Positions 27,524 through 62,874 of a DNA stretch of 64,000 bases are shown one piece after another. The DNA comes from Octopus vulgaris. Lineage: Eukaryota. Below the pieces are notes generated by a model that had not been told where the DNA came from, made no database searches, and saw nothing but the letters and a program-made list of their open reading frames with translations. Each line of letters opens with the position of its first letter. Position 1 is the stretch's first letter. The stretch covers positions 65,348,001-65,412,000 of the forward strand of contig OX597833.1 of assembly GCA_951406725.2 (NCBI GenBank), given 5' to 3'. The position numbers and the translations under genes were made by a program.

Positions 27524-28077
27524 CAACAACAATAATAATAATAATAATAATGAGTTTCTCTGCCCTAGGAGTCGGGAAGACACTCGGCAAGAAATGGAAG
27601 CAAATTTGAAAGAAGAAAAAAAAAGATAATAATAATAATAATAATAATAATTGATGCGCTAGGAAGTAACAATACACAATTACCAACATGGCTCGACTCA
27701 AAAAGAATAGTATAAATATATAGATAGAACACCTACAAAAAACATCTTTGCTTGGAATTGCAAGTCTGCTGTCCGAAAGGTTCTTCAACCATGATCAGTA
27801 AACAAGTGTCACTTTGGTCTGCTGGCTGTGGACAGCTGACATTTTCCATCATAACCAACAAAATAAACTGAGAGTTTTCATCAAATAAAAATAATTGGTC
27901 ACGGTTGGAACGCATTTCACCATATATATATTTACTCGATGGAGTTCTTATCTGTCGTAAAGCCATGATAACAAATAGGTGGAACAAATGTAATGAGAGA
28001 ATGGTGGAAGCGAATTCGACTGAATTCTTATTGCGAAATTTTATTGATTTTTACCATTTACATATTCTGGAATATAT

Positions 28078-28443
28078 ATATAGTGGTAGTATACTGTCAA
28101 CGCAACGTGACAGTCCCCTAAAGGGAATCACACCACCGCTATTTAGCCCTAGGAAGCATCGACGCCTCCTGTCGGCTTTGACACATTTCATGTGTCCTTA
28201 TATTTGCAAAGGGGAGCTAGCAGGACTTAATACCCCGGACTGATGACGGGCAAGACCCAGAAACATGTCTCCAGGTGCTAATCCTAGCTGGCGGGGGTGC
28301 TTGCTTCCCCTTTGCAAATATAAGGACATAGGAAATGTGTCAAAGCCGACAGGAAGCGTCGATGCTTCCTAGGGCTAAATAGCGGTGGTGTAATTCCCTT
28401 TACGGGACTGTCACGTTGTGTTGAGAGTATACAACCACTCTAT
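28078..28443. mobile_element. Foldback element with arms of about 160-170 bp and a hammerhead core at the apex
   Basis: Arms 28078-28239 and 28270-28443 are reverse complements with scattered mismatches and one indel. Confidence 0.9.
28233..28276 (+). ncRNA. Minimal type I hammerhead ribozyme
   Basis: cccgga CTGATGA (28240-46) cGGGcaagaCCCa GAAA (28260-63) CATG TC tccagg. GTC triplet at 28267-69, palindromic ACATGT stem III. Confidence 0.75.
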
Positions 28444-29003
28444 CGCTCCACCACCGCTCATGTCTCTCTGAGACATTTAGAAATTCAATATTTCTAATTT
28501 TAGAATATATATATTTTTGAACAAAATGTTCGGTATTACAGAAACGACAGACTTTGTAATGTTTAAAATTATCGAATTTCTTGACTTTGCCTAAGATAAG
28601 AATGAACATTATTCTGTCGATGCATTTAAAGTTCTATTCTATATAAAATCCAATTCTATGTTCCACTGGTCATTTGTCTACAATCAATACCGGATTACCG
28701 ATCAGTCTTTGAAGATAGGATCGATACGGATACATGTGCGCTATGTCAGGAAAGAAGCTTTAGGCATAATATTTTATTCTTTCAAACACCGCCGTGAGTT
28801 CTTTACATGAGCGTCGGACTCCATCGACTGGGTAACATACTTTGCTTCCAAATTCGATTCAATATTTAATTCTCTCATACTTGAAATAGAATGAACGAAG
28901 TTATTTGTGCGTCTCTTCAGGATATAATGTCTTTAACGCATAAAGGGGAACGTTGTGTTTCTAAAGCACACTTCAAGCAGATGTTTATATGCATATATAT
29001 ATA

Positions 29004-35817: not shown

Positions 35818-35975
35818 GCCTGTCCCTTTTTCTTATATACAATATATATACTGAACTTTACAGAAGTTCCTACCGTTAATCGGCTATATTTACATACCGA
35901 ATTCTACCAGTAAATAATTGTGGTCTTTTTTTAAAAACCATTATAAAAATTATTTACTCTTATTATTATATTATA

Positions 35976-36485
35976 TCTATATATATAAAACTCTAGTTGT
36001 GTGAGTGTCTGTCCCCTTCGATTTAGATGCCTAACTCCTCCCACATTTTGCGGTGCAGTTTAACCAAATTCGGGTATCTTATAGTCGTGATTCATATCGA
36101 GCCCGTCTGAGTATTAGCGCGCGTCAACGATGAGTCTACGATTTTAAAAATAATTTAACATCATTTTTTATTCCATTTTAATGCATAATTTTTCGTGTGT
36201 CGATGGCGGCGGAGTTGGCGTCCACGCTCACAGCTGCACCTGTTTGCTTCTCCCCCATCCCTCCCTCGTGAAGCTGTGGGGAAGAGAGTGTAAGGAAATC
36301 AACGTCGTAATGCGTTGTCAAGGAGACCAGCGTTCTTTTAGAACAACGACTTCATGGCTTGAAGACACCAAAACAGAAATGGCTAAGAAAGCCCGAATTG
36401 GCATCTATAAGGGAAGTAACTCTCTAAAAATGCTTATATAGTTATTTCCCTTATAAACCCGAGCAACGCCGGGCGATACTGCTAG
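35976..36485 (+). mobile_element. Non-autonomous Helitron (510 bp)
   Basis: A|TCTATATATATAAAA 5' end, CCCGAGCAACGCCGGG hairpin, CTAG|T 3' end, no TSD. Confidence 0.92.
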
Positions 36486-36495
36486 TATATATATA

Positions 36496-37002
36496 TCTAT
36501 ATATATATAAAACTGTAGTTGTGTGAGTGTATGATCCCTTCGATTTAGATTTCTAACTCCTCCCACATTTTGCGGTGCAGTTTAACCAAATTCGGGTATC
36601 TTATAGTCGTGATTCATATCGAACCCGTCTGACTATTAGCGCGCGTTAACGATGAGTCTACGATTTTAAAAATAATTTAACATCATTTTTTATTCCATTT
36701 TAATGCATAAAATGCATCGTGTGTCGATGGCGGCGGAGTTGGCGTCCACGCTCAAAGCTGCACCTGTTTGCTTCTCCCCCTTCCCTCCCTCGTGAAGCTG
36801 TGGGGAAGGGAGTGTAAAGAAATCAACGTCGTAATGCATTGTGAAGGAAACCAGCGTTCTTTTAGAACAACGACTTCATGGCTTGAAGACACCAAAACAA
36901 AAATGGCTAAGAAAGCCCGAATTTATAAGGGAAGTAACTCTCTAAAAATGCTTATATAGTTATTTCCCTTACAAACCCGATCAACGCCGGGCGATACTGC
37001 TA

Positions 37003-37003
<1 letters not shown>
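36496..37003 (+). mobile_element. Non-autonomous Helitron, second tandem copy
   Basis: Same termini, separated from the first copy by 10 bp of (TA)n. Confidence 0.92.
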
Positions 37004-37063
<60 letters not shown>

Positions 37064-39395: not shown

Positions 39396-40850
<1,455 letters not shown>

Positions 40851-44772: not shown

Positions 44773-44869
44773 CTTGGAAGTGGATTACACAAATATCACG
44801 TTACAATTTTACAATTCAACATGGGTGTCCAAAAGATGTGTATTCTTTCGCTTGAACCCACATCGTGGG

Positions 44870-45607
44870 GACGATCAATAGGGATTGTGTATCACAGAAA
44901 AGGGAAAACAGATTAGGTTTGTCCGTGTTTCCAAAACCCTACGAAAAGACCACGGGAACCTTGAGCAATAGTGTCATGCGAAAAGAAAACACAGTACAGT
45001 AAGTGGCTCCCTTTTATTCCTTCCTTTGTTTTTTGGGGGGTTTTTTTTGGGGTTTCTTTTGTTTTTTCTTTCATAGGATTATGCTCAAGCTGGGTCCGTC
45101 ATTCAAACGTGCCATCCTTGCTACATTCACCCATCTTTTTTTTTAAACATTCTCAAGACAAATCTTCCCTCTCTGCTCTCATCTTCTTCTTCAAGTGATA
45201 CTTGAAGAATTTGAGAGAATGACCAGAGAGGAAAGTGTTTGTCTCTAATCCTTTCAGGCGCGTCCTCCATACACATTCTTTCACCATAACCACAAGTACG
45301 AGGAAAATGGCCTTTCCTTCCCGTTTGAAGGAAGGAGGCGCGATAATATTCATGATAGACTCGGTTGATAAATCGACTCGGTCCACACGCGATAGCAGTT
45401 GTTCGACATGGGCCCAAAGGTCGGAAATGGCTAGACAATGTACGAGTGCGTGTTGGACGGTTTCATCGCTCTGACCGCATCCCAGACAGGTCGGCCCCGT
45501 GTTTCTCGAGGCATGCCTGTAGAGCTTCTCCCGAACGGGTAGCGCTTCTCGATAGCACTGCCAGGCCAAGGATCTCTGCAAGTTGTCCATAGGCCCAAGC
45601 CCGAAAG
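44870..45607 (-). mobile_element. L1/Tx1-clade LINE 3' fragment (zf-RVT/CCHC domain plus 3' UTR)
   Basis: SLAWQCYREALPVREKL...TCLGCGQSDETVQHALVHC..SDLW, then KECVWRTR. The 5' truncation abuts (GATA)n. Confidence 0.9.
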
Positions 45608-58835: not shown

Positions 58836-58855
58836 ATGATTAAACTAAAGAATTA

Positions 58856-59368
58856 TCTATATATATAAAACTGTAGCTGTGTGAGTGCCTGTCCCCTTCG
58901 ATTTAGATTCCTAACTACTCCCACATTTTGCGGTGCAGTTTAACCAAATTCGGGTATCTTATAGTCGTCATTCATATCGAGCGCGTCTGGCTATTAGCGC
59001 GCGTCTACGATGAGTCGACGATTTTAAAAATAATTTAACATCATTTTTTATTCCATTTTAATGCATAATTTTTCGTGTGTCGATGGCGGCGGAGTTGGCG
59101 TCCATGGTCACACCTGCACCTGTTTGCTTCTCCCCCTTCTTCCCTCCCTCGTGAAGCTGTGGGGAAGGGAGTGTAAGGAAATCAACGTCGTAAAGCGTTG
59201 TCAAGGAGACCAGCGTTCTTTTAGAACAACGACTTCATGGCTTGAAGACACCAAAACAGAAATGGCTAAGAAAGCCCGAATTGGCATCTATAAGGGAAGT
59301 AACTCTCTAAAAATGCTTATATAGTTATTTCCCTTACAAACCCGAGCAACGCCGGGCGATACTGCTAG
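58856..59368 (+). mobile_element. Non-autonomous Helitron
   Basis: A|TC...hairpin...CTAG|T, highly similar to the 35976 copy. Confidence 0.92.
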
Positions 59369-59556
59369 TTCAATATATTTTAATAATTTTATTACTTTTA
59401 ATCTTTAACCCTTTGACGCCGGTATTACTTGAAGCATGCGAGACACTGCTCCGTTTTTGGGGGTTTTTTTATCTAATGAGGCCACACAAACACAGACATG
59501 GCCCATCTCTCCATTGGTCTCCTATTTAGCAAGAGACCCTTGGAATAGTCCTAGGA

Positions 59557-62229: not shown

Positions 62230-62864
62230 GCAGTATCGCCCGGCGTTGCTCGGGTTTGTAAGGGAAATAACTATATAAGCATTTTTAGAGAGTTATAGCC
62301 AAAAAATAGCAAAAAATGCATTAAAAATGGAAAAAATATGATGGTAAATTTTTTTGAAAAATCGTTGACTCATCGTAGACATTTTTAGAGAGTTACTTCC
62401 GTTATATAATAGCGAAAAAATGCATTAAAATGGAAAAAAAACGATGGTAATTTTTTTTTTAAATCGTAGACTCATGTAGACGCTTTCTTAGCCATTTCTG
62501 TTTTGGTGTCTTCAAGCCATGAAGTCGTTGTTCTAAAAGAACGCTGGTCTCCTTGACAACGCATTACGACGTTGATTTCCTTACACTCCCTTCCCCACAG
62601 GTGCAGGTGTGAGCGTGGACGCCAACTCCGCCGCCATCGACACACGAAAAATTATGCATTAAAATGGAATAAAAAATAATGTTAAATTATTTTTAAAATC
62701 GTAGACTCATCGTAGACGCGCGCTAATACTCAGACGGGCTCGATATGAATGACGACTATAAGCTACCCGAATTTGGTTAAACTGCACCGCAAAATGTGGG
62801 AGTAGTTAGGAATCTAAATCGAAGGGGACAGACACTCACACAACTACAGTTTTATATATATAGA
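62227..62864 (-). mobile_element. Non-autonomous Helitron, chimeric with internal duplications
   Basis: 5' TC at 62864, 3' hairpin, CTAG mutated to CTAT. The block gtctacgatgagtc.acgatt...aatgcat occurs three times. Confidence 0.88.
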
Positions 62865-62874
62865 TATACATAGC

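Follow-up and report, generated by a model that had tools for sequence, protein, structure and literature searches.

A hammerhead-bearing hairpin in Octopus vulgaris built from two head-to-head retrozyme copies, and an L1-group LINE that adjoins such units

What kind of element carries a self-cleaving RNA motif at the tip of a long hairpin? A 64,000-nt stretch of Octopus vulgaris contig OX597833.1 (the window) had been read, from its letters, as holding such an element at 28078-28443, with arms of about 160 bp and a type I hammerhead ribozyme at the apex. This original prediction took it for a foldback non-autonomous retroelement or a self-processing dsRNA precursor, of an architecture not yet described.

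The long dsRNA-like hairpin is evident: the plus strand of the window folds into a rod of -269.9 kcal/mol (z -23.7), equalled in 0 of 100 shuffles. Its anatomy is another matter. The true inverted duplication covers 138 nt at 93% identity, with 90 nt separating the ungapped arms. Arms of 160 bp (147 of 160 aligned letters) can be drawn only with a 13-nt bulge, because helix I of the monomer itself, and not the duplication, supplies the inner ~22 bp. The element also continues 54 nt past its predicted end and spans 28078-28497. It is bounded by an 18-nt direct repeat (28064-28081 and 28497-28514, 89% identity), in which the left flank has a 12-nt exact, low-complexity core (row L018). The features of the locus are as follows.

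28064..28081, plus strand: left flank resembling a target-site duplication, 89% identical to 28497-28514 and overlapping the first arm bases
28078..28216, minus strand: inverted, 5'-truncated, tail-less monomer copy (monomer 163-301), 138 nt at 93% to the right arm
28215..28497, plus strand: sense monomer copy (monomer 73-355), 84.5% identical to the L063 reference monomer
28216..28239, plus strand: 5' strand of hammerhead helix I, native to the monomer by its sequence; in other copies, the stretch of LINE insertion
28240..28269, plus strand: core of the type I hammerhead with helix II and the palindromic helix III; cleavage predicted after 28269 (sequence and family parse)
28270..28288, plus strand: 3' strand of hammerhead helix I (sequence and family parse)
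28293..28310, plus strand: GC-rich mini-hairpin, read from sequence; the inverted piece ends within its mirror image
28444..28497, plus strand: 54-nt 'tail' separating the short 3' end from the long one, in one arm only (from the bimodal 3' ends)
28497..28514, plus strand: right flank resembling a target-site duplication, 18-nt direct repeat at 89%

The hairpin is therefore made of two pieces of a ~355-nt hammerhead monomer, one inverted and tail-less, the other in sense orientation and tailed, arranged head-to-head and overlapping by 2-3 nt. The sense copy lacks the upstream spacer, which holds an ATCAGTG motif and a TA run. Hairpin and type I core are both real, yet they are not one designed unit, and the position of the core at the apex is incidental.

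Consistent with the predicted ribozyme, the window element contains CTGATGA (28240-28246), a GGG/CCC helix II, GAAA (28260-28263), the palindrome ACATGT (28263-28268) and GTC, with the cut expected after 28269. These are the features of a type I hammerhead: CUGAnGA, GAAA, a NUH triplet and three helices, of which helix I is open. An Rfam scan, which the prediction had proposed as a check, gave no hammerhead match at either of two thresholds. Helix III consists of two pairs around a 2-nt loop and so can form only between two copies, as predicted; pairing of this kind is described in the available text of PMC4209133. The ribozyme fold of the window copy lies 4 kcal/mol above the minimum. In the model, activity of this copy is disfavoured by a C-A at helix I pair 4 (a position paired in 61 of 67 parsed hammerheads), by pairing probabilities of only 7-8% for the three inner helix I pairs and by loss of the upstream spacer.

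The family presents a clearer picture. We parsed 67 unique motifs from four families, having required that 4 or more of 5 helix I pairs form. In helices I and II one standard pair replaces another (GC/CG, AT/GC, CG/TA), helix III is palindromic in 61 of the 67 motifs, with three different palindromes, and the cleavage triplet is GTC in 66. Helix II starts with a C-A mismatch in 34. Among copies not chosen on the core, mismatches number 4/360 in the core and 153/3694 in non-diagnostic arm columns, so the core is better conserved than the arms, as the prediction had asked of it. With compensatory helix variation and a conserved core, the ribozyme is real at the family level and, by this sequence pattern, appears to be under selection in source lineages.

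We searched the 2.8-Gb genome and recovered 224 exact matches to a core pattern and 628 to an arm pattern, with 0 for either reversed control. The monomer measures 354-355 nt and occurs as three tandem copies in L063/L116, where the middle core is degenerate. Tandem monomers of 150-400 nt, each with a type I hammerhead, are the organization of non-LTR retrozymes. We looked for a reverse transcriptase (RT) or endonuclease frame at the monomer loci, and none was present. Family sequence also appears in contigs from three probable RNA runs, although such contigs carry no start, end or circle information. These observations support classifying the unit, by its sequence, as a non-autonomous hammerhead retrozyme tied to Penelope-like elements.

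Metazoan non-LTR retrozymes have been described by Cervera and de la Pena 2020 (PMC7229834) and in a preprint by Li, Clavereau and Pollet 2026 (10.64898/2026.07.22.740005). Like them, the octopus family has a non-coding ~355-nt monomer, a type I hammerhead with a short palindromic helix III, both monomers and tandem arrays, and a Penelope link. The class includes RNA circles; for the octopus family such circles are a prediction. The available text of PMC7229834 makes no mention of octopus or cephalopods. Three more hammerhead retrozyme families share the layout: B (L131:328-562), C (L133:402-641) and D (L138:468-667). The core variant of family B is TTGATAA, which is also present in an autonomous Penelope element.

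We next consider how often, and in what form, the head-to-head arrangement occurs. A first set of 30 loci had been chosen for resemblance to the foldback, so an unbiased rate comes only from a sample chosen on the arm alone, namely the first 30 of the 628 arm-pattern matches. In this sample an inverted piece is present at 14 of 30 loci, and all 14 combine one long end (monomer ~353-355) with one short end (~292-302). The core is missing from 6 of the 12 arm-sampled foldbacks whose inverted piece extends beyond the tail; the original prediction had named loss of the core in other copies as an outcome that would refute it. Over all loci, 3' ends are bimodal (monomer ~292-302 and ~346-355) and 5' ends scattered, with 38 of those tallied at monomer positions 140-179. 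Clustering of junctions at the cleavage site (monomer ~127) was considered and rejected, the 120-129 bin holding 1 start.

Among simple head-to-head pairs, 28 of 30 have one long and one short end, and their junctions vary, many lying in self-complementary hairpins; exceptions amount to 2/30 simple pairs and 5/36 in a wider list. Flanking repeats scoring at least 10 accompany 21 of the 30 pairs, against 1 control, and 11 of those 21 are not low-complexity (12-17 nt). The arms are not nested in 8 of the 28 long-plus-short pairs, where the tail-less arm outreaches the tailed one on the 5' side by 15 nt or more. Both arms bear a core in some pairs (L098, L106). Arms within one insertion differ from each other at 5.6 of ~89 sites, compared with 9.6 to other copies, and share rare alleles (24 in 36 pairs, versus 0.04 per random pair). 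At L065 the same layout extends over 7.4 kb, LINE bodies included, and again combines a long end with a short one. Divergence between arms reflects point mutation of the ordinary kind, including CpG decay. A check for A-to-I editing, suggested with the prediction, found no A-to-G excess as an ADAR signature in inherited copies (1.43%, versus 1.50% T-to-C). A MITE or foldback DNA element, which would have fixed terminal inverted repeats and an interior common to its copies, does not fit the asymmetric ends and variable junctions.

This architecture has precedent. A 5'-truncated copy in inverted orientation together with a single terminal tail, the combination seen in 28 of our 30 pairs, is the layout published for Penelope elements in the available text of Craig 2021 (PMC8557442) and Arkhipova 2013 (PMC3846280), contrary to the view that it was undescribed. 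The octopus insertions share with Penelope insertions, as portrayed in the accessible parts of these papers and of Frangieh 2024 (PMC11167929), the head-to-head inverted piece, the one-end tail and target duplication, along with AT or microsatellite targets and two start sites. They differ in lacking an RT-GIY-YIG frame in cis and in their 54-nt tail, compared with a published 30-40 nt for Penelope. The hairpin is, in this respect, ordinary for Penelope-type insertions.

A search for GIY-YIG proteins gave 6136 candidates, of which 150 matches were scored, many of them in 781-aa frames. One locus (L158) combines RT and GIY-YIG domains with a minimal hammerhead near its 3' end. A 38-nt tail is present in L158 and L161 and absent from L153, L155 and L172. 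A young autonomous Penelope-like family (L158:1-2830; L153; L155; L161) has a 781-aa RT plus GIY-YIG frame in many copies. As to a partner for the retrozyme, 0 of 30 GIY-YIG loci (of the 6136 candidates) had an end sequence in common with the unit; these loci held only chance-level similarity to the unit ends and one neighbouring family B insertion. Between retrozyme units, the bodies that we found are LINE frames and not the RT plus GIY-YIG frame that lies between the pLTRs of an autonomous Penelope-like element.

LINE sequence precedes several retrozyme copies, and lies 10-25 nt before the core in four retrozyme families. This LINE encodes an ORF1 with a CCHC knuckle and an ORF2 with AP endonuclease, RT and zf-RVT domains, and the closest solved structure to ORF2 is L1 ORF2p, a domain set that makes this LINE a candidate member of the Tx1 clade. 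Among the 120 protein matches listed, the only named relative is from Argonauta hians (56%) and none is a named Tx1 reference; an Atlas search returned RVT_1 as its only name.

We sampled both ends of the LINE, seeding from a copy found beside a hammerhead. For 3' ends, 30 of 43 matches to the 3' part of one LINE were taken, and the query and 5 unreadable ends were excluded. Of the 24 readable 3' ends, 19 adjoin a hammerhead unit and 5 do not (L094 was read by eye). Of these 19, 12 meet a complete motif (family A, B, C or D), 2 a remnant of helix I and 5 a piece of helix I with a further LINE copy behind it. For 5' ends, 30 of 41 matches to the 5' region were taken, 4 of them 5'-truncated. What precedes the 26 intact 5' ends is, in 11 cases, the upstream half of a retrozyme and, in the other 15, a LINE end together with a helix I piece; 8 of these 15 are near-identical and 3 lie in one array (L246 and L255 were read by eye). 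Both fractions, 19/24 and 26/26, exceed the 20% of flanks given for Tx1 target preference in the available text of PMC4494074. At three loci (L061, L062, L138) the LINE insertion has target duplications of ~14-20 nt.

These counts overstate independent insertions, since L065 is a LINE-plus-unit pair with a short and a long end, indicating that composites are copied as units; distinct junctions suggest at least about eight independent LINE insertion events. In a tree of 500 nt and 20 rows (L096 was dropped as too short), one supported clade (100/97) mixes copies at targets A, B and C, these targets recur outside it, and the D and U2 copies pair (96/99). Separately, we observed ORF1-only LINE derivatives (L061:3860-5500, L062:3810-5670, L066:1740-2470) with a CCHC knuckle and no RT, located at the same helix I site and carried with a hammerhead unit.

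The U2 copies belong to a relative of this LINE at the start of a U2 snRNA gene, where two tandem, nearly intact copies (L127:3100-8720, L128:4330-4540) are associated with a ~20-nt duplication and lie at -7..+14 around +1. An uninterrupted U2 is found 2.5 kb downstream of the LINE-bearing one. No LINE match was found at 12 U1 and 12 U6 loci, and a 3' fragment of a more distant L1-group LINE in the window (44780-45600, minus strand) has no hammerhead after it; targeting is thus not general to all snRNA genes or to all relatives. The window also contains a ~520-nt repeat at 35974-37027, 58854-59378 and 62482-62872 (86-95% identity; tandem, dispersed and inverted copies) and, at ~39700-40780 on the minus strand, broken mariner-type transposase frames labelled by eye from their translation.

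In the available text of Kojima 2015 (PMC4494074), Tx1 inserts into Tx1D, Tx1-Mar into Mariner-N4_AMi and Keno into U2; Tx1 families there target other transposons, microsatellites and U2, and a 'satellite' target is also given. The octopus LINE resembles these, by sequence, in its two ORFs, AP endonuclease and RT, target duplication, and insertion into repeats and U2. It differs in its target, the helix I strand of hammerhead retrozymes from four unlike families, and in the position of its U2 insertion. LINE insertions into retrozyme units are not reported in the accessible portions of PMC7229834 or the preprint 10.64898/2026.07.22.740005. No LINE targeting retrozymes was found in literature screened by title and abstract opening, a scope outside Repbase and most subscription papers, so prior annotation is possible.

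We identified one further feature common to the two kinds of target. At a distance of 57-59 nt, ATCAGTG precedes U1 (12 array copies), U2 and three of the four U5 genes that we inspected; it is absent from the U6 upstream regions examined, so a U6-type promoter element is not supported. Of 89 hammerheads examined, most of them 5'-truncated or junctional, 29 have the motif within 120 nt, and in 26 of those 29 the core follows ATCAGTG, or a variant differing by one letter, at 83-89 nt. One retrozyme subfamily matches the U1 element at 13/14 letters, a score reached by 0 of 3000 shuffles. Together, the spacing in the U1, U2 and U5 genes and that before the core predict a transcription start 25-30 nt before the core, where helix I begins and no more than ~15 nt from the LINE junctions. 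ATCAGTG is also half of a palindrome, so a role as an RNA hairpin is possible. A parallel exists in newt satellite 2, a hammerhead tandem repeat with an internal snRNA-type promoter (Coats 1994, as cited in the available text of PMC2220036); for the octopus repeat such a promoter is suggested only by the motif shared with U1, U2 and U5. A tandem variant U6 array (L185-L188, ~1.1-1.4-kb spacing) has an upstream TATA run and octamer and no ATCAGTG.

The observed monomer, tandem arrays, two fixed 3' ends, variable junctions and target duplications are best explained, with a probability of roughly 0.8, by a single insertion of two head-to-head, differently truncated ~355-nt retrozyme copies, likely written by Penelope machinery with priming on both strands. 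A Penelope RT/GIY-YIG protein would make its two nicks, one per strand, ~12-15 nt apart at an AT-rich site. One target 3' end would prime at the long start site and the other 54 nt upstream; both cDNAs would halt at variable points and join by microhomology, which could put the core at the apex or off-centre, duplicate it or omit it. In vitro, according to the available text of PMC11167929, a Penelope protein acts on both strands, which it cuts and then extends from two start sites; ribozyme cleavage is dispensable for the reaction. The ribozyme would instead work in source arrays, cutting dimers into monomers, and these arrays are probably transcribed from the snRNA-type promoter, starting ~25-30 nt before the core. 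The window copy, which lacks that promoter, is likely dead. The LINE would insert site-specifically before the core, and LINE-plus-retrozyme RNA could then be carried by the same two-ended mechanism.

The mirror arm might instead have arisen within the same family by self-priming, or snap-back, of one cDNA or of antisense RNA. Snap-back has been proposed for Penelope palindromes (PMC3846280, in the text available), many junctions lie within self-complementary hairpins, and the window copy, taken by itself, fits, its short arm being a subset of its long arm. The non-nested arms of 8/28 pairs favour priming from both strands over snap-back, and the pairs with a core on each arm and the different LINE portions borne by the two arms of L065 are also difficult to reconcile with it; we regard snap-back as unlikely. 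We give still less credence to mobilization of the hammerhead unit by the L1-group LINE, with the unit as the LINE 3' end. It would account for LINE 3' ends that pass directly into hammerhead units, for composites that move together (L029, L065) and for the failure to find a Penelope partner among the 30 GIY-YIG loci. However, the LINE has duplicated retrozyme or U2 sequence on both sides, as expected of an insertion; closely related LINE ends precede four different units and U2; and the units lack poly(A) and stop at two fixed sites.

Of the two readings in the original prediction, the first survives in part, in that the family is non-autonomous and linked to Penelope-like elements, while a fixed ribozyme apex is contradicted by the differing junctions. 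A foldback element of that kind, or a precursor of host-used dsRNA or siRNA cut at its own tip, is the least probable account we considered. A read-through transcript would indeed fold as a very stable rod, and the window copy has an intact core. Against this, junctions are variable, the core is absent from half of the unbiased foldbacks, the arms have diverged by ordinary mutation, the window copy lacks the promoter motif and helix III cannot close in a monomer; self-processing of a dsRNA precursor is not supported.

Under the two-strand Penelope reading, the shared promoter motif raises a broader scenario that we put forward tentatively, judging it rather less probable than not. In this system of three layers of parasites, retrozymes would have captured a host U1/U2/U5 promoter element, and the LINE would home to starts marked by it through a tether to the snRNA transcription complex, not through target sequence, hence its sites at U2 +1 and before hammerheads. 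The LINE would borrow a promoter and a self-cleaving 3' end, and Penelope machinery would carry the composite.

With its long and short ends and non-nested arms, the family supports, cleanly and at the genomic level, priming on two strands from two start sites, a part of the Penelope cycle that is not yet settled. Hammerhead retrozymes, if a LINE targets them, would be a kind of target new to site-specific LINEs, and the motif shared with U2 allows a direct test of whether the targeting follows sequence, the ribozyme core or a transcription-factor tether.
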